From an uncultured Poribacteria bacterium (GTDB lineage: Bacteria; Poribacteria; WGA-4E; WGA-3G): a stretch of DNA of 64,000 bases. Below the pieces are notes generated by a model. The model did no database searches and had not been told where the DNA came from. It saw nothing but the letters and a program-made list of their open reading frames with translations. Each line of letters starts with the position of its first letter. Positions within the stretch are counted from its first letter, which is position 1. The translations under genes and the position numbers were made by a program. Positions 38,593 through 47,025 of the stretch are shown here, in pieces. The DNA lies in the NCBI GenBank assembly GCA_951813565.1, contig OX638351.1, positions 2,016,001-2,080,000 on the forward strand, read 5' to 3'.

Positions 38593-41500
38593 TCACAATG
38601 CTTTGATAACCACAATCGTCATATCATCGTTCTGTTGAGCATCACCGGAAAAATCACGGACATCGTTAGTAATCGCATCAATCACCGCTTCTGCGTTCAT
38701 TGTTTTATCCAGTCCCTTAATAAGATGGGTTAAGCGGTCGGTTTCCATGTAAAGTTGGTCGAAATTGTTGCTTTGAGATGCTTCAGTAATGCCGTCGCTG
38801 AAAAGGATGATTGTATTGCCAGATTTCAGTTCAATTGGCGGTGTTTCTTCATATTCAGAGGATTTAAACGCGCCCAATGGGAGTCCATCTATTGAGATCT
38901 CTTCAACATCACCTTCGCCGCGCTTGATAATAGGATAAGGGATTCCGGCGTTGGCATATTTAAACGTCTTATCCGTTGGGTCAATGGTCAGTATCCCCAT
39001 CGCACAATTAGTATATCGTTGCAATCGAGGATAAAGGTTCTGGTTCAATGCCCACAACATTTGAGATGGAGACAGTTCCAACTGCGCCACAGAATGGAGT
39101 GCCCCAGAAGATAAAACAGCATTCATTGCACCTTTCATACCTTTGCCAGTGACATCTGCCAACACAACGGCGAGCGCGCCGTTACCAAGGGGAACATAGT
39201 CAAAGAAATCTCCACTGACGGCGCGGGCGGAAATACAAACACCTGCAATCTCAAACCCCGGAACTTCAGGTGCGGTTTGCGGTATTAATCCCATCTGCAT
39301 CTCTTGTGCATCGGCGAGCTCGGAAACTGCTTCTCGCTGATAGGCTAAAACCTGTTGACGCTGGTGGTAGTAGCGATATGCAAAAATACCACAAAGCGAC
39401 AGTAACACAACAATCGCGCCTCCGAATAAATACAGAAGCCATCCGCTTTGGTGCCACGGCAACACAACGGTCAACATTAGACTTGCAGGGGTAGAGTAGT
39501 TTAGGTCTCGGTCTATGGCAACGACCTCAAAGGTATATGTTCCCGGTTTATCAAAACTGATATTAAACGTATCTGATCGGGTTGGTTTGCGCCAATCGGA
39601 GTCGATCTCTTTAATACGAACCTGATACTGTCGTTTCCCTTTCGCGGTTTTGAAGTCTATACTGCTGTACTTGATAGTTACAAGAGTGTCGGTGGCAATA
39701 TCTTTAATTGTTTCGGGTGAACTCATTTGGGGAGGTGTTTTGTGGCTCTGAACTGAAACGATACGCACACGCGGTGGAACTCGATTTAGATTGTATTGGG
39801 TGACCCCTTCAAGCGTTCCAAACCAGAATCTCCCGTCTGAATCTTGACTAATTCCCAAAACTCGATTATTTATGAGTCCATCTCGCGTATCTAAAGATGT
39901 CCATGAGGTCCCATCGTATCGAGAAACGCCGCCCTGTGTCCCAAACCAGAGAGAACCCTCTCGATCTTGGTAAATTGAGGACACATCATTTTGTGCGAGT
40001 CCATCATTCGTTGTGAAGTTGACAAACTTTTCACCGTCATAACGAGAGACACCACCACGAATAGTTCCAAACCATAAAAATCCATCTCGGTCTTCGTGAA
40101 TCGCCAATACAGAATTAGATGCGAGTCCATCAGTGGTTGTAAAGTTGACAAACTCATTATCATCATATCTATAGATACCTCCCCCAATGGTTCCAAACCA
40201 GAGGGAACCGTCTCGGTCCTGATAAATTGAGGACACAACGTTTTGCACCAATCCGTCATGGGTCGTAAAGTTGACGAACTGATTACCGTCGTATCGATAG
40301 ACTCCATTATTATAGGTTCCAAACCATAAAAATCCATCTCGGTCTTGATAGAATGTCAACACGGTGCCAAACGAGAATCCACCATTGGTCATGGAGTTAA
40401 AAAACCTATCGTCGAAGTTAACAAACTGATCGCCATTGTATTGAGAGCCACCGCCATCTGTCCCAAACCAGAGGGAACCCTCAAGGTCTTGAAAAATCGA
40501 ACGCACGGAATTATGTACGAGTCCATCATCGGTTGTAAAGTTGATAAACTTCTTCCCATCATATTGACTAATTCCGTTGTCTGTCCCGAACCATAAGAGT
40601 CCGTCCCGGTCTTGAAAAATGGTGGAAACAGTGTTGCCGGCGAGTCCATCAGCAGTTGTGAAGTTAATCAATCCGCTGTTATCGTATTGGCTGAGTCCCT
40701 CACTGAGACTTGAAATCCAAAAGAACCCTTCTCTGTCTTGAAGAATGGACAATACGGAGTTCGTTGCGAGTCCATCGTTGGTTGTGAAGTTAACGATCTT
40801 TTCGCCATCATATCGAGAGACCCCATTATCCCGAGTCCCGAACCAAAGAAATCCGTCTCGGTCTTGATGAATTGTCTCAACAAGATCACTAACAAGCCCG
40901 TCCCTGGTTGTGAGGTTAACAAACTGATTACCATCGTATTGAGAAACGCCGCCGTCTGTCCCGAACCATAGAAGTCCATCTTGATCTTGATGGATCGACT
41001 GCACAAAATTGTGGGCGAGTCCCTCATTGGTCGTAAAGTTAACAAACTGATCACCGTCGTAGCGAGAGAGTCCCTCGAGTGTCCCGAACCAGAGGAATCC
41101 ATCTCGGTCTTGATAGATTGACAATATAGAGTCAGTAATGAGTCCATCATCGGTTGTGAAGTTGACGAACGCTTCGCCATTATATCGAGAAACTCCATTT
41201 TTCAGAGTTCCGAACCAGAGGTGCCCATCTCGATCTTGGTGGATTGCCCATACGTCGTTAGCAGCGAGTCCATCATCGGTTGTAAAGTTAATAAACTTCT
41301 TCCCATCATATTGACTAATTCCGTTGTCTGTCCCGAACCAGAGGAATCCGTCTCGGTCTTGATAGATTGACAATACAGTGTTGTGTGCGAGTCCATCATC
41401 AGTTGTAAAGTTGACGAACGCTTCGCCATCGTATCGAGAAACCCCACCGTTGCGGGTGCCAAACCATAGGAATCCGTCTCTGTCTTGATAAATCGACCGA

Positions 41501-42651
41501 ACGTTGTTACTTCCCAACCCTTCTAAATAAGTATGGTGCTTCCATGTCCCATGTTTGAAAGGTGGAAAACGGAAGTCAACATTCTTAAGTGTATTTTGTC
41601 TGTCAACAGAAACAATCTTGTTTGGATTTTCGCTATGTGCCTTCAAGGTGTGACAACGTAATTGATACTGTCCAGTTCTAAGATTGATGAATTTATATTT
41701 ACCTCTATTATCTGATAGGGTCGTTGCCTGTCTTTGACTGGAACCGTTTTTTTCGAGTAATAATGCTTCGACAACAACACCGACATGTGGCGTCCTATCA
41801 AGCTTCAACAGGGCCCCAGAGATGCTAACAGCCTTCTGTAACGTTAAGTTAATTTTCGCACGATCACCTGCAGAAAGTTGAACTCCCGTTTCCCAATTAC
41901 CCTTTTCCCCGTGGGTGGCTTGAATATCGTAGTGTCCACTTGCTGGGTAGACTGAAAACTGGTAAAAACCTTTGGTGTCGGTTTCTGTTTTGGCAATCAT
42001 GGTGCTGCCCTGCCATAGGTGCCCAGGGACATTAGATAAGGTGTTTCCCACCTCATCGGTTATAACACCTGCTACCACCGCACGTGTAGGTGGAAGAACA
42101 CGCGCTGCAAGCTCCCACTTCCCGAGTCCGTTTGAAACTTTCACCAGACAGCGATTTTTACCCGGACGCAATGAAACGGGGACCTTGTCTTCATCTACAA
42201 CGATTGGTCTCGAAACTCGCTGTATGTGTGCACTTTGACCGTTAAGAAAAACCGCAACCCCATCATCACTGCCGATGCGGATTTCACCATCACCGTCCTG
42301 ATCGCTTTCCAATAGACAGAACGCATAGCAGACTGCTACTTCATGTTTCCCAATTGCACGCTGCAGGTCAACGATGTTTCCTTCGGTACGGTATACCGTC
42401 CAGGTCAACGTTTCGCCTTCAGCAGTGGTCACTGTATCGCCGGGCTTGGGATTAGCAAGAGTCTCACCGTTAGCTGACGCGAGGAAATCGGTCTGCAAAT
42501 CTTCTGGGAAGAAGGGACCCAACACCAGCCATTCTTTGATAAAGGTGCCATCAACCGGATGAGTGGGGACATTATCTTGGGCGTGTGCAACAGCGACGGA
42601 GAGGCATAAGAAGATTAAGAGACTATATCGGACAGAAAAAAGGTTTCGCAT
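38593..42651 (-). CDS. Membrane sensor: extracellular domains, two-component-regulator propeller repeats, Y_Y_Y, TM, PP2C/SpoIIE phosphatase
   Basis: About 14 I.QDRDG.LWFGT repeats; SGDFFD, ADVTGKG, FSDGITE, DDMTIVV. Confidence 0.92.
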   Translation of the reverse strand: MRNLFSVRYSLLIFLCLSVAVAHAQDNVPTHPVDGTFIKEWLVLGPFFPEDLQTDFLASANGETLANPKPGDTVTTAEGETLTWTVYRTEGNIVDLQRAIGKHEVAVCYAFCLLESDQDGDGEIRIGSDDGVAVFLNGQSAHIQRVSRPIVVDEDKVPVSLRPGKNRCLVKVSNGLGKWELAARVLPPTRAVVAGVITDEVGNTLSNVPGHLWQGSTMIAKTETDTKGFYQFSVYPASGHYDIQATHGEKGNWETGVQLSAGDRAKINLTLQKAVSISGALLKLDRTPHVGVVVEALLLEKNGSSQRQATTLSDNRGKYKFINLRTGQYQLRCHTLKAHSENPNKIVSVDRQNTLKNVDFRFPPFKHGTWKHHTYLEGLGSNNVRSIYQDRDGFLWFGTRNGGVSRYDGEAFVNFTTDDGLAHNTVLSIYQDRDGFLWFGTDNGISQYDGKKFINFTTDDGLAANDVWAIHQDRDGHLWFGTLKNGVSRYNGEAFVNFTTDDGLITDSILSIYQDRDGFLWFGTLEGLSRYDGDQFVNFTTNEGLAHNFVQSIHQDQDGLLWFGTDGGVSQYDGNQFVNLTTRDGLVSDLVETIHQDRDGFLWFGTRDNGVSRYDGEKIVNFTTNDGLATNSVLSILQDREGFFWISSLSEGLSQYDNSGLINFTTADGLAGNTVSTIFQDRDGLLWFGTDNGISQYDGKKFINFTTDDGLVHNSVRSIFQDLEGSLWFGTDGGGSQYNGDQFVNFDDRFFNSMTNGGFSFGTVLTFYQDRDGFLWFGTYNNGVYRYDGNQFVNFTTHDGLVQNVVSSIYQDRDGSLWFGTIGGGIYRYDDNEFVNFTTTDGLASNSVLAIHEDRDGFLWFGTIRGGVSRYDGEKFVNFTTNDGLAQNDVSSIYQDREGSLWFGTQGGVSRYDGTSWTSLDTRDGLINNRVLGISQDSDGRFWFGTLEGVTQYNLNRVPPRVRIVSVQSHKTPPQMSSPETIKDIATDTLVTIKYSSIDFKTAKGKRQYQVRIKEIDSDWRKPTRSDTFNISFDKPGTYTFEVVAIDRDLNYSTPASLMLTVVLPWHQSGWLLYLFGGAIVVLLSLCGIFAYRYYHQRQQVLAYQREAVSELADAQEMQMGLIPQTAPEVPGFEIAGVCISARAVSGDFFDYVPLGNGALAVVLADVTGKGMKGAMNAVLSSGALHSVAQLELSPSQMLWALNQNLYPRLQRYTNCAMGILTIDPTDKTFKYANAGIPYPIIKRGEGDVEEISIDGLPLGAFKSSEYEETPPIELKSGNTIILFSDGITEASQSNNFDQLYMETDRLTHLIKGLDKTMNAEAVIDAITNDVRDFSGDAQQNDDMTIVVIKAL

Positions 42652-42891
42652 CTGTTCTCTGAGTAAACTTGCTGTGATTACTAATGTGTGATTATTAATG
42701 ATAGAATTGGGATTGGAAAACTAAAAACTACAAGTCACTGAAACATGCATCGCTACAATAAATGATAGCACATTTAGTAAAGAGAATCAAATCAGAATAA
42801 GGTGTGTTTTATCTGTAACCGTAACGCGTTGTATAGGATCAATCTCTGAGTGGCGACTTCTCCTATACAACGCGCAATATTGCCCTAACAG

Positions 42892-44088
42892 TTAATCTTG
42901 AGAATGATGATCTTCTGGTTTCAAATAAACAATAACCATACCTACGAAGTTTAGTAAATAGAAAACGGCATCGTTTTTGGGTTCAATGAAATTGTCTTCC
43001 GTACGCTTCGCTAATGCAGCATCAATCAATATCTCCACAGTTTTCTCCATCTCATTTTCGGGAATGCCACATCCGTTTGCCAAGACAGCAACAGATTTCC
43101 TGCCTCCGACTAACTGCCTTAAAACAGCTACTACGATAGGGTTTGTGAAGTATTTCGCAAGATTCACGATTTCAGCATCTGGTGCTCTGGATAGGAAATT
43201 ATCAACACTATCCGTCCAGATTGAACCTCGCGTTGATGACTTACCAGAAGCTGTGCGGTATGCACCACCGTACCCCCATCTGATTACATCTTCGCCATCA
43301 GGGAGTTGAGTTAATCCTGCAAGCCTGTCATTTTTCTTTGAGTCCATAGATGCCTCAGATTTGGATGCAAGAACATTAATTTGCTCTTGCAAATCGACAA
43401 TTTGATGTAGCATATCTGCTAACTTCGCGTCAAGCTCGGATTCATTTCTCACTTCGTCTGCCATGCTAATTTCTCCTTTCAACTGTTGTTCGGAACGATG
43501 TTCCATTTCAATTGTAATATCTAATTCCTCTTGCATCATAAATCCGTACTTCTTTAATCGCTGGCGTGCGCGATATAGCCGACTCTTAATCGTATTTTCT
43601 GGTATTCCTAAGTACGTCCCTATCTCAGCAGTTGTCATCTCTTCAAAATAGTGGAGTGTGATTAACTCTCGGTCACTCTCTTTCAACTTCGTAAGCAGTT
43701 TTTTGATGATGTCGCGTTGTGCATACGCAGTAGCTTTTGCATGTTCGGAAGCGACGTGCCGAGAATAGGTATCTGTCTCTATTTTTGAGATATGCATCTC
43801 TTCCAGCGATTCAGGTAGAAGCCGATTTTTTCGGTACCAAGCGATACAAAGGTTTTTCACTATCGCATATAGCCACGTTGAAAACTTCGCTGGGTCTTTC
43901 AGGGTTTCTAATTTCTGATGGACTTCCAGAAAGGTCTCTTGGGTAATGTCTTCAGCGATATGGAAATCACCTATTTTCCGCACCACATACGCGTGAACCT
44001 GTTTCTCGTATTTGCTAACTAAATCAGCAAAAGCAGCCTCGTCACCTGCAAGGACACGTTGAATCAACGCAACATCGTCGCTTTTCAT
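42892..44088 (-). CDS. ECF sigma factor with C-terminal coiled-coil and winged-helix extension
   Basis: GDEAAFADLV, AEDITQETFL, FSTWLY, region 4 EIG..LG...TIKSRLYRARQRL; ~190-aa extension. Confidence 0.9.
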   Translation of the reverse strand: MKSDDVALIQRVLAGDEAAFADLVSKYEKQVHAYVVRKIGDFHIAEDITQETFLEVHQKLETLKDPAKFSTWLYAIVKNLCIAWYRKNRLLPESLEEMHISKIETDTYSRHVASEHAKATAYAQRDIIKKLLTKLKESDRELITLHYFEEMTTAEIGTYLGIPENTIKSRLYRARQRLKKYGFMMQEELDITIEMEHRSEQQLKGEISMADEVRNESELDAKLADMLHQIVDLQEQINVLASKSEASMDSKKNDRLAGLTQLPDGEDVIRWGYGGAYRTASGKSSTRGSIWTDSVDNFLSRAPDAEIVNLAKYFTNPIVVAVLRQLVGGRKSVAVLANGCGIPENEMEKTVEILIDAALAKRTEDNFIEPKNDAVFYLLNFVGMVIVYLKPEDHHSQD

Positions 44089-44202
44089 CTGACATCTCCA
44101 AAATAGATATTTTCATCAAGGGGAATTATAGGGTTTGCGCGTTTCTCGGATAGGACACTTATAAAGTGTGTTAAGAAACGCTAATCAATACACTCGCTAT
44201 AT

Positions 44203-44232
44203 AGTGACGCGAATTAGGCGGAAATAGTTGCA
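44203..44232 (-). promoter_or_regulatory. Putative ECF promoter TGCAAC-17-CGTC
   Basis: Same architecture upstream of the paralog. Confidence 0.65.
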
Positions 44233-44395
44233 TATATTTAAATTGAGGGTGGATTTAAGAGGGTATGGTTTGTCGTAGGGTTTGTTATAATGGAAGGATA
44301 GTAGATGGCGGGGCACAGAGACCCCGCCCTACAAATGATTTTTGAGATACGCTCTAATAACTCGTCTAAATGCTTTACGGATTACCGAACCGAGT

Positions 44396-45637
44396 TTAAT
44401 TTTCTGGTTTGATATGTCCGAGATGTACGATTGTCATACTCACAAAGTTTAGGAAAAAGGAAATCACATCGTTTTTTGGTGTAATGAGATTATCTTCCGT
44501 GCGTTTCGCTAATGTAGCGTCTACTACCGTCTGCACAGCTTTCTCTATCTCATCTTCTGAGATGCCACTCTCTTTTGCCAAATCCGCAATGGATTTACCA
44601 CCTTCCACCAACTGTCTTAAAACAGCGACTACGGTTGGATTGGTGAAGAGATTTGCGAAATTTACGATGTCAGCATCCGGTGCTTTGTTTAAGAAAATAT
44701 CAATGTTGTCCGCCCAATATGCGATGCGTGACTTGCCAGCATTGGACGCGGTCTTATATGCACCAACATAACCCCATGCTACCTGATTTTCAGCATCTGC
44801 GGGGAGTGTGCTTAATGTCTTAAGTGCATCACTTCGTTGTGAGCGGGGCGGACGCAACAAATCATCTTCAGAACGGCGAGTGTTTAGTTCCTCAACGATA
44901 GACTGCATCTGTTCACGGAGCTCACCAATCTCAACTCGCATCTCAGTAAGACTTCTCTGCATTTCTGCGGGATTCACCTCAACTTTGGTTTCATTTTTCG
45001 CTTCTTTTGCCATGCTAATTTCTCCTTTCAACTGGTGTTGGGAATGTTGTTCCCCTTCGATTGTAATGTCTAACACTTCTTGTATCAGGGGTTCATACTT
45101 TTTTAATCGTTGCCGCGCACGACGGATCCGACTTTTGGCGGTATTTTCTGATACGCCTAAATACGTACCTATCTCTGAAGATGTCATCTCCTCAAAGTAG
45201 TGGAGTGTAATAACTTCCCGATCGCTTTCTTTCAACTTCGCAAGCAATTTCTTGACGAGGTCGCGTTGCGCATCAGCATTAATTTGAGCGTGTTCTGCAG
45301 CGACATATCGGGAATACGCTTCTATCTCTATTTCTGATATGTCGGTTTCTTCCAGCGATTCCGTTTTTATCCGATTTTTTCGAAACCATGCGTTACAAAG
45401 GTTATTCACAATCGCATGAAGCCATCTTGAAAACTGCGTCGGGTCTTCTAACGTCTCCAGTTTCTGATACACTTGTAGGAAGGTTTCTTGCGTAACATCT
45501 TCGGCGATATGGAAATCTCCGGTTTTTCGCCATGCATGCGCATGAACTTGTTTCTGGTACTTTCCAATCAAACATGCAAAGGCATCTTCATCACCTGTAA
45601 GGATGCGTTGAATCAACGCAACGTCTTCGTTTTTCAC
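44396..45637 (-). CDS. ECF sigma factor with C-terminal extension (tandem paralog)
   Basis: Same motifs as 42892..44088; GTG start with GGAGG RBS. Confidence 0.9.
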   Translation of the reverse strand: MKNEDVALIQRILTGDEDAFACLIGKYQKQVHAHAWRKTGDFHIAEDVTQETFLQVYQKLETLEDPTQFSRWLHAIVNNLCNAWFRKNRIKTESLEETDISEIEIEAYSRYVAAEHAQINADAQRDLVKKLLAKLKESDREVITLHYFEEMTSSEIGTYLGVSENTAKSRIRRARQRLKKYEPLIQEVLDITIEGEQHSQHQLKGEISMAKEAKNETKVEVNPAEMQRSLTEMRVEIGELREQMQSIVEELNTRRSEDDLLRPPRSQRSDALKTLSTLPADAENQVAWGYVGAYKTASNAGKSRIAYWADNIDIFLNKAPDADIVNFANLFTNPTVVAVLRQLVEGGKSIADLAKESGISEDEIEKAVQTVVDATLAKRTEDNLITPKNDVISFFLNFVSMTIVHLGHIKPEN

Positions 45638-45684
45638 TAACAGCCTCCAGAAGCGTCCCTTTACTCACTCATATATATATATAT

Positions 45685-45714
45685 AATGACGCGAGTTATA
45701 AGAAAAAAGGTGCA
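45685..45714 (-). promoter_or_regulatory. Putative ECF promoter TGCACC-17-CGTC
   Basis: Matches 44203-44232; followed by (TA)7 run. Confidence 0.65.
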
Positions 45715-45746
45715 TAATTCGGAATAAGTTGTATTGTGAAATTAAC

Positions 45747-45775
45747 TTGACACATTCTATTCCTTCCCATATAAT
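45747..45775 (+). promoter_or_regulatory. Consensus sigma70 promoter
   Basis: TTGACA-17-TATAAT. Confidence 0.8.
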
Positions 45776-45816
45776 CTATCAACACAATTCAACAAACATA
45801 GCGGAGGAATCTGCCG

Positions 45817-47025
45817 ATGGCGAAAACAGTTTGCGTTGTCGGAACAATGGATACCAAAGGTGAAGAATTTGCCTTTATCACAGATCACATAGAATATAGT
45901 GAAGTGTCAACGTGTGTTGTTGATACAGGAATCTTGGGAGAACCGTTGTTCATACCTGATGTTTCTGCTGATGAAGTTGCACAAGCTGCTGGTTCGTCGC
46001 TAAAAGCATTGCGAGATGAAGGGGACCGGGGCAATAGTGTCGCTGTAATGGCACAAGGTGCAGCAACGCTTATCGCAGGGAAACATGCTGCAGGAGAAAT
46101 TGATGGCATCATCTCACTCGGAGGTTCTGCGGGGACGACCATCGGAACAACAGTGATGCAGGCGTTACCTGTGGGAGTCCCGAAACTGATGGTATCAACG
46201 CTCGCATCAGGTGATACAAGTCCGTATGTGCAGTCCAAAGATATATGTATGATGTATTCTGTCGTTGATATTTCAGGTATCAATCGCCTGTCACGACAGA
46301 TACTCACTAACGCTGCGAGGGCAGTCGTTGGAATGGTAACCGCAGCAGCACCAGAGGCAACAGATGATAAACCCCTAATCGCTGCGACAATGTTCGGTGT
46401 CACGACCCCGTGCGTCACAAAAGCGCGTGAAATCCTTGAAGCTGCTGGCTACGAAGTCCTCGTTTTTCACGCAACAGGCACAGGTGGACGTGCAATGGAA
46501 GACCTTGTCAAAGGTGGATTCCTTGCCGGTGTGTTAGACGTAACAACGACAGAACTTGCAGACGAATTGGTGGGTGGAATTCTCAGTGCTGGTCCCGAAC
46601 GGTTGGAAGCTGCAGGACAAGCGGGTTTGCCTCAAGTTATTGCACCCGGTGCCTTGGATATGGTAAACTTCGGTCCTCCTGATACTGTGCCAGAGAAGTT
46701 TAGCAAACGACATTTCTATCAGCACAATCCGACGGTCACACTCATGCGGACAACCCCTGAAGAAACTGCTGAGTTAGGAAAAATCATGGCACACAAACTC
46801 AGTGAAGCGAATGGACCTACAACCGTCCTTGTTCCGACACAAGGTGTCTCTGCTATTGATAAAACAGGTCAACCTTTCGATTCACCCGAAGCGCGAGATG
46901 CGTGGCGAGAAAATCTAAAGGCACACATCGCGGACAATGTTACAGTCATTGAAATGGACGTTCACATCAACGATGACGAATTCGCGACAAAACTTGCAGA
47001 AACGTTGTTGGATAGCCTGAAATAA
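45817..47025 (+). CDS. Tm-1-like ATP-binding protein (UPF0261)
   Basis: GTMDTKGEE, GGSAGT, ATMFGVTTPCV, FHATGTGG, HNPTVTLMRT. Confidence 0.92.
   Translation: MAKTVCVVGTMDTKGEEFAFITDHIEYSEVSTCVVDTGILGEPLFIPDVSADEVAQAAGSSLKALRDEGDRGNSVAVMAQGAATLIAGKHAAGEIDGIISLGGSAGTTIGTTVMQALPVGVPKLMVSTLASGDTSPYVQSKDICMMYSVVDISGINRLSRQILTNAARAVVGMVTAAAPEATDDKPLIAATMFGVTTPCVTKAREILEAAGYEVLVFHATGTGGRAMEDLVKGGFLAGVLDVTTTELADELVGGILSAGPERLEAAGQAGLPQVIAPGALDMVNFGPPDTVPEKFSKRHFYQHNPTVTLMRTTPEETAELGKIMAHKLSEANGPTTVLVPTQGVSAIDKTGQPFDSPEARDAWRENLKAHIADNVTVIEMDVHINDDEFATKLAETLLDSLK

Follow-up and report, generated by a model that had tools for sequence, protein, structure and literature searches.

Tandem ECF sigma fusion genes of a Poribacteria bacterium retain an internal start region that probably yields a free partner protein

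Results and discussion

Two sigma fusion genes with an in-frame start region at the domain junction

We analyzed a 64,000-nucleotide window from the genome of an uncultured Poribacteria bacterium (contig OX638351.1, positions 2,016,001 to 2,080,000 of the forward strand; the host genome is one 5.43-Mb contig). Two tandem genes of its minus strand, here called A and B, each encode a sigma factor of the extracytoplasmic function (ECF) type that continues, in the same open reading frame (ORF), into a C-terminal partner module, and in both genes the junction between the two parts holds a Shine-Dalgarno (SD) sequence followed by an in-frame ATG. We propose that each gene probably gives rise to two proteins, the sigma-partner fusion and a free partner translated from this retained start region. 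What favors this proposal is the conservation of the start region at the nucleotide level in relatives, together with one relative in which sigma and partner are two separate, overlapping genes.

Gene B comes first on the minus strand and gene A lies downstream. Pfam domains found in both proteins were Sigma70_r2 (residues 23-89) and Sigma70_r4_2 (126-178) only, with nothing between them and without region 3 or 1.1. The ECF superfamily model TIGR02937 scored 112.4 and 116.3 bits in A and B, against a cut-off of 42.9, and covered profile positions 2-164 and 1-164 of 165; in the same type of NCBIfam profile search, neither protein reached an equivalog cut-off. A and B are ECF-type (group 4) sigma factors, as the initial annotation of this stretch had stated. 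That annotation had also described the absence of an adjacent anti-sigma gene, in agreement with our Pfam scan, which found no anti-sigma family in A, in B or in the four neighbouring ORFs.

The internal start had been described as an AAGGAG located 8 nt before an in-frame ATG at codon 209 of both genes, just downstream of region 4, with internal products of 190 and 205 amino acids; coordinates, frames, codon number, spacing and product lengths were all reproduced here (Table 1). The start lies in a 27-nt stretch common to A and B, CAGTTGAAAGGAGAAATTAGCATGGCA. Codons 203-210, which follow the tail after region 4, read L-K-G-E-I-S-M-A and are encoded in both genes by TTGAAAGGAGAAATTAGCATGGCA. 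No other identical run in the A/B DNA alignment (71% identity) is as long as this 27-nt stretch, the second longest measuring 17 nt. Taken alone, the observation is weak, with a simulated P(run ≥ 27) of 0.025-0.10. The 18-mer AAAGGAGAAATTAGCATG has just two occurrences in the genome, at A and at B. Genome-wide, AAGGAG-N-ATG shows a peak at N = 6-8 (186, 216 and 137 sites, vs 30-43 for an ATC control), so the spacing in A and B fits that of the real starts of this genome.

In the full-length AlphaFold2 model of A, residues 185-216, between region 4 and the following helix, have a predicted local distance difference test score (pLDDT) below 50 and form a disordered linker, and the internal start is placed in this interdomain segment. 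Few parts of the coding sequence fold as little as the 50 nt that surround the internal ATG (mean z = +1.65, z positive in 36/36). The A and B proteins are 58% identical overall. The description of the sequence immediately downstream of the ATG as divergent holds for about 45 residues, a helix with indels, and does not hold for the last 140 residues, which are well conserved.

The internal start is conserved as nucleotides in relatives

Conservation was followed at the residue level in the 120 best homologs (391-499 amino acids, all fused), and at the codon level in 36 full-length orthologs from 30 genomes. Results showed that the column of residue 209 is Met in 119 of the 120 homologs and Val in one, and this lone Val (L011) is a GTG codon. 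Residue 205 is Gly in all 120, while columns 207, 208 and 210 vary freely. In the codon alignment, codon 204 is xAA in 36/36 orthologs, with Lys (29), Glu (5) or Gln (2) as the residue. Gly205 is GGA in 32/34, a codon that accounts for 26% of the Gly codons in these genes, and it is the most codon-fixed of eight conserved Gly columns. In the variable codon 208 (mostly Ser, Asn or Ile) the first base is A in 38/38 junctions of this type read as DNA. Altogether, 81 junctions were read as DNA, leaving out L022 (a pattern mis-hit) and two K-R-G-T-I-M forms; GGAG occupies positions -12 to -9 in 76 of them and some SD core is found in 78.

The SD also falls in different reading frames. It is read as K-G-E (AAA GGA GAA), as N-G-G in a type with a DnaN-like partner (AAC GGA GGT), as I-K-E-K in L014 (ATT AAG GAG AAA; matching P0094 and P0120), as K-E-D on the distant contig L080 (AAG GAG GAT, within AAGGAGG-N8-ATG) and as K-E-E-V in L083 (AAA GAG GAG GTA). 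The same purine motif being read in different frames in different lineages, the constraint is, as judged from these alignments, one on the nucleotides and not on the amino acids. Moreover, A and L081, a fused relative from another family of the same order, have only 43% amino-acid and 55% nucleotide identity, yet 26 consecutive nucleotides ending at the ATG are identical, and no other such run exceeds 14 nt (simulated P(run ≥ 26) = 5.5e-5). These comparisons, and not the A/B run alone, argue strongly for a junction conserved beyond chance. The initial annotation had proposed such a survey and had named non-SD codons or a lost Met in homologs as findings that would speak against an internal start; over deep divergence, we found instead that SD and ATG are kept at the nucleotide level.

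Sigma and partner are overlapping genes in one relative

Overlapping stop and start codons are the classic layout by which a sigma gene and its regulator, as in sigma/anti-sigma operons, are translationally coupled. Exactly this layout is present in relative G148 (L082), where sigma and partner are two genes in different frames, the sigma TGA (1446-1448) overlaps the partner start (ATG at 1441) and an AAGGAG lies 10 nt upstream of this ATG. This indicates that A and B, which have lost the stop and joined the frames, are in-frame fusions of a sigma gene with a translationally coupled downstream gene, and that their L-K-G-E-I-S-M linker is translated former intergenic RNA.

In natural variants on the long contigs L042 and L058 most of the sigma part is lost and the partner ORF is intact, with its SD and ATG. 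Among 66 sigma-only matches counted by eye, 65 lie in open frames of at least 282 amino acids and one is a 218-amino-acid stand-alone gene, and in the studied genome 28 of 29 close sigma paralogs are in ORFs of 279-1081 amino acids. The sigma is almost never alone. For at least 13 short database entries of the partner, the first residue is precisely the internal Met. These were not counted as evidence for a free form, since P0255 turned out to be an artefact of a contig end (L080 begins 19 nt ahead of the ATG); only forms on long contigs are still counted (L042 and L058, and P0136 on a 5.6-Mb contig). A scan of the genome contigs with P0255 gave 186 pattern matches, none of which was confirmed.

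Related modules were also seen apart from a sigma. At L014:2679-3656, a separate downstream gene with its own AAGGAG-N9-ATG contains a second tail and a K-G-E-T-I-M junction before a helix and a winged helix, and thus the junction module can occur without sigma in front. In L004 (579-1190) and L024 (2699-3367), free genes adjoining sigma fusion genes carry the winged-helix module after an N-terminal hydrophobic helix that replaces sigma.

The partner is an acidic winged-helix module

The partner belongs to a small family: a search of 1.84 billion representative proteins gave 68 clusters at E ≤ 0.001. For the nested product AlphaFold2 predicted a long helix and a hairpin, followed by a confidently modelled winged helix (core pLDDT ~89), and Foldseek matched this model to 2kko, SmtB, CzrA, BigR and NolR (E 1e-4 to 1e-3, target-normalised template modelling score 0.64-0.74). 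The winged helix announced as ArsR-like by the initial annotation is in fact found as a fold. Beyond the fold, the partner departs from ArsR/SmtB repressors: Pfam HTH_20 scores 25.8 and 21.6, short of the 27 required by its gathering cut-off, the domain is acidic (median isoelectric point 4.47, median net charge -6) and the putative recognition helix is Glu-rich (E-x-E-x-E) in place of a DNA-reading one. A DNA-binding repressor of the ArsR type is therefore unlikely, and the modelled domain probably binds protein rather than DNA. Plausibly, the partner is a protein-binding, anti-sigma-like module. Neither Pfam nor NCBIfam gave a match to the class I anti-sigma profiles ASD and zf-HC2 in the internal product, and the models of A contain no hydrophobic transmembrane helix. 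The full-length model has a predicted template modelling score of 0.31 and gives no fixed arrangement of sigma and partner, being uninformative on this point.

Other partners follow the junction in relatives

In relatives, a single sigma clade (support 99, 79 rows) carries winged-helix partners with various helices, DnaN-like partners, S9 peptidases with PD40 repeats and WD40 partners. PurC is joined to sigma in two further genomes, at L078 (G088) and L079 (G136). Partner types cluster on the tree, with 12 changes vs a minimum of 5, suggesting that swaps are rare.

The DnaN-like partners fetched (24) have all three clamp domains. They form fusions of 575-615 amino acids, with several copies truncated (269-497 amino acids), and are kept in two genera (L042, L044-L053, L055, L057, L059-L067, L069 and L070). 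Their junction, AAC GGA GGT ATT GGA ATG (ACGGAGGTATTGGAATG), differs in sequence and has the same SD spacing. Position 1 of the DnaN Pfam profile aligns to the internal Met as residue 1, and PurC behaves likewise, so the canonical N-terminus of these proteins is at the internal Met.

The fused DnaN-like and purC genes are both extra copies, the former being a more diverged paralog. We had considered that the sigma-fused PurC might be the only one of the cell; this was rejected, G088 and G136 each holding a normal purC elsewhere. As both fused genes are extra copies, essentiality is unusable as an argument. The captured purC of G088 is 96% identical to the normal copy, which points to a recent capture, and the two copies become homologous within the SD, about 10 nt ahead of the ATG.

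Two more distant ECF-like sigmas of the studied genome, at 1599376-1600593 (plus strand) and 3818096-3822400 (plus strand), are joined in frame through an SD and an ATG to FtsZ-like N-termini, a label given by eye from the Gly-rich motif I-G-V-G-G-A-G.

Membrane-type paralogs of the same genome

Outside the window, the genome contains 27 further sigma paralogs, for example at 926505, 933148 and 1306316 (plus strand) and at 2083481 (minus strand). Most are ORFs of 830-1080 amino acids, in which sigma leads through R-L-K-K-E-E-[PT]-M and a short segment into a single transmembrane helix, with a large C-terminal part beyond it. The junction of 15 of the 27 has an in-frame AAGGAG or GGAGG placed 5-8 nt before an ATG at codon 185-218 (for example AAA AAG GAG GAA ACG ATG).

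A two-protein model and its alternatives

We propose the following scenario. In the ancestor, an ECF sigma gene would have been translationally coupled to a partner gene behind it, which encoded a long helix and an acidic winged helix of ArsR fold. With the sigma stop codon lost, the frame would have become continuous across the former intergenic start region and on into the partner. This former start region, TTGAAAGGAGAAATTAGCATG, now encodes the disordered linker L-K-G-E-I-S-M and is probably kept by selection as RNA and not as protein; each gene therefore most likely yields two proteins. The fusion would be made from the 5' start, whereas the internal SD and ATG would give the free partner. 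The initial annotation had likewise proposed two proteins per gene, with the free domain possibly titrating the fusion through the coiled coil. Of the three steps, we are most confident that internal initiation would be used. Next comes the partner acting as a protein-binding, anti-sigma-like regulator, of which the fused copy would be present 1:1 in cis, with the free copies keeping the regulator in excess. Least confident is the suggestion that free and fused copies may pair through the helix.

Several observations weigh against this two-protein model. In the membrane-type paralogs, read by eye, the Met is replaced by Ile, Leu or Val in 7 of 27, which means that the signal can decay in that branch. 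Two rows of the codon alignment have AGG at the Gly205 column, probably the K-R-G-T-I-M forms, and their SD would then be weaker. The sequences counted are relatives, and the counts overstate their independence. Many third-codon positions are conserved anyway (5 of 59 Lys/Glu/Gln columns are 100% A-ending), so the codon test alone is modest. In the DNA set the Met served to locate the junctions and its ATG counts are partly circular, a circularity that does not affect the survey of 120 homologs. The low RNA folding at the ATG could stem from the purine-rich composition of the linker, and some short 'free' partners in the databases are contig-end artefacts, as seen with P0255, which is L080.

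Four other explanations were weighed, and all of them fit the data less well than the production of two proteins. The SD and ATG could be the unused leftovers of an inert fusion scar, in genes that make the full-length fusion only. The fusion origin itself is real, as G148 indicates, and the replaced Met of the 7 membrane-type paralogs is what an inert scar would show. Such a scar should, however, decay at synonymous sites and its Met should drift to other hydrophobic residues, yet Met is kept in 119/120 homologs with GTG as the lone change, GGAG is kept in 76/81 junctions and the 26-nt run of A and L081 is identical (P = 5.5e-5) in genes with 55% nucleotide identity. We consider this explanation unlikely. 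The junction could instead be a recombination socket, about 26 nt of DNA kept or homogenised to provide the homology over which sigma paralogs exchange their downstream modules. The variety of partners within one supported sigma clade (winged-helix, DnaN-like, S9 and WD40, plus PurC) speaks for such a patch, and so does the start of the G088 purC homology inside the SD. Partner types nevertheless cluster on the tree and swaps appear rare, and the DnaN-type junction has another sequence with the same SD spacing, which fits the function of a ribosome-binding site better than a shared homology patch. A socket, which would be compatible with internal initiation, seems to us quite unlikely as the explanation. 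Scar and socket had been offered together as the alternative of the initial annotation. This alternative is partly right, in that the junction is a former intergenic start region, unfused in G148, and joins sigma to DnaN-like, PurC, S9-peptidase and WD40 partners in relatives.

A constraint on the protein is also conceivable, in which K-G-E-x-x-M would be a cleavage or docking site of the linker, G205 and M209 being nearly invariant residues. We regard this as very improbable: residue 204 changes between Lys, Glu and Gln while its last two bases stay AA, different frames turn the same purine motif into different residues, the model shows the segment as disordered and the junction is common to unrelated partners. 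Finally, the SD-like site could act on elongating ribosomes, causing a pause or a +1 frameshift into the TGA of TTGAAA that would release sigma without its partner. A and B do have this TGA in the +1 frame, and the sigma-deleted L042 ends at exactly that TGA. On the other hand, there is no slippery site, variants with TCG AAA (C at -17 in 11/38) lack the +1 stop and an ATG at fixed spacing would not be needed, making an effect on elongation highly improbable as well.

A wider version of the two-protein model is doubtful and we put it forward tentatively. The portable start-region junction may make this Poribacteria sigma clade a set of tether-and-compete switches. Two independent initiation sites on the same mRNA would set how much of the partner is free and how much is tethered, and this balance would determine if sigma is held in partner assemblies or let go. 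One such partner would be the acidic winged helix, acting as an anti-sigma; those of relatives would be a DnaN-like clamp, a peptidase, WD40 or PurC, and an FtsZ-like partner is joined in the same manner to a more distant ECF-like sigma of this genome. The conserved 26-nt junction might double as a partner-capture site.

Comparison with known systems

ECF sigmas with fused C-terminal regulatory extensions are well known, for example ECF41, ECF42 and ECF238 (Casas-Pastor et al. 2021, PMC7826278). Like these groups as presented there, A and B have a sigma2-sigma4 core, an extension in the same polypeptide and no separate adjacent anti-sigma gene. The difference is that the extension of A and B keeps its own ribosome-binding site and start codon and is a separate overlapping gene in one relative (G148). 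Also, in the main text of PMC7826278 the same type of extension clusters in the same or neighbouring groups, whereas here closely related sigma cores carry unrelated partners. The words 'internal', 'WD40', 'sliding clamp' and 'translational' are absent from that main text, and 'Poribacteria', 'HTH_20', 'DNA_pol3_beta', 'FtsZ' and 'winged helix' are absent from one of its supplements.

Internal in-frame starts are established genome-wide in E. coli (bioRxiv 10.1101/520783). In phage endolysins such a start gives a full-length protein and a free C-terminal polypeptide, and some of these enzymes need the assembly of both (Pinto et al. 2022, PMC9430671). From what that paper reports, endolysins resemble A and B in the nested in-frame start and differ in protein class and host; both endolysin products were demonstrated experimentally, whereas those of A and B are predicted. 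Sigma and regulator are also combined in one polypeptide in IutY, a sigma/anti-sigma hybrid of Pseudomonas putida with a transmembrane segment and a periplasmic anti-sigma domain, activated by proteolysis (PMC5411451). A and B share this combination and, unlike IutY, are without a transmembrane helix; the membrane-type paralogs of the genome come closer to IutY than these two genes. Neither 'internal' nor 'translation' appears in the main text of PMC5411451. Our literature search returned no description of an ECF fusion that keeps the start site of its partner, nor of Poribacteria sigma fusions, although the novelty may still be affected by the group-by-group descriptions of PMC7826278.

A working internal start would add a new layer of control, with a regulator both tethered and free from one mRNA and a stoichiometry set by translation initiation. 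The family also forms a natural series for the evolution from operon to fusion, comprising the unfused overlapping pair, the fusions, the sigma-deleted forms and the partner swaps. In genome annotation, a second protein may go unnoticed within sigma-fusion ORFs of Poribacteria that are taken as 'single'. The DnaN-like and FtsZ-like fusions hint at links of sigma activity to replication or division.

Surroundings of genes A and B

Table 1. Features of genes A and B in the window (positions counted from its first nucleotide).
Feature	Position	Strand	Details
Gene B, full ORF	44396..45637	minus	413 amino acids, GTG start; ECF sigma, linker, helix and winged-helix module
Gene A, full ORF	42892..44088	minus	398 amino acids, ATG start; architecture as gene B
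A, sigma region 2 (residues 23-89)	43822..44022	minus	Pfam PF04542, E = 1.7e-16; pLDDT ~90
A, sigma region 4 (residues 126-180)	43549..43713	minus	Pfam PF08281 and PF04545
A, 27-nt junction, proposed internal translation initiation region	43459..43485	minus	SD AAGGAG 43478-43473, spacer AAATTAGC, ATG 43464-43462
B, 27-nt junction, same as A	45008..45034	minus	SD AAGGAG 45027-45022, ATG 45013-45011
A, nested in-frame ORF, putative free partner	42892..43464	minus	190 amino acids; long helix ~43309-43443, beta hairpin, ArsR-fold acidic winged helix ~42919-43203
B, nested in-frame ORF, putative free partner	44396..45013	minus	205 amino acids; ORF list, A/B alignment
ECF-type promoter-like motif upstream of A	44206..44233	minus	ATGCAAC-N17-CGTC; genome motif scan
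ECF-type promoter-like motif upstream of B	45688..45715	minus	ATGCACC-N17-CGTC; genome motif scan

The four neighbours of A and B encode a Reg_prop/SpoIIE protein, a UPF0261 protein (divergent gene) and two ORFs without Pfam family. The first of these, directly downstream of A (38593-42651, minus strand), is predicted to encode 1352 amino acids, combining Reg_prop/Y_Y_Y propeller repeats and a transmembrane segment with a PP2C phosphatase domain of the SpoIIE type. We considered it as a conserved downstream neighbour and rejected this: a SpoIIE-type gene follows the A ortholog in just 1 (L005) of 29 loci searched from other genomes, and it is therefore not part of the sigma-partner unit.

An Rfam scan of 42000-46200 gave no match at E ≤ 0.1. 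The scan for sigma-70 promoters and terminators over 42600-45850 returned 7 promoter-like sites vs 7.4 expected, and a -35/-10-like site about 50 nt upstream of the internal ATG of B was rejected as an internal promoter, being at chance level. Between B and A lies a GC-rich inverted repeat (GGCGGGG...CCCCGCC, 44308-44331) that the terminator scan did not call.

Upstream of both genes we found an ECF-type promoter-like motif (Table 1). It is a candidate for the autoregulatory promoter typical of ECF sigma genes, with an AAC-like -35 and a CGT-like -10. Its general form, ATGCA[AC]C-N16-18-CG[TA]C, occurs at most 250 nt upstream of 16 of the 29 close sigma paralogs (A, B and 14 others) and has 47 matches genome-wide, the other 31 of which are possible regulon members.

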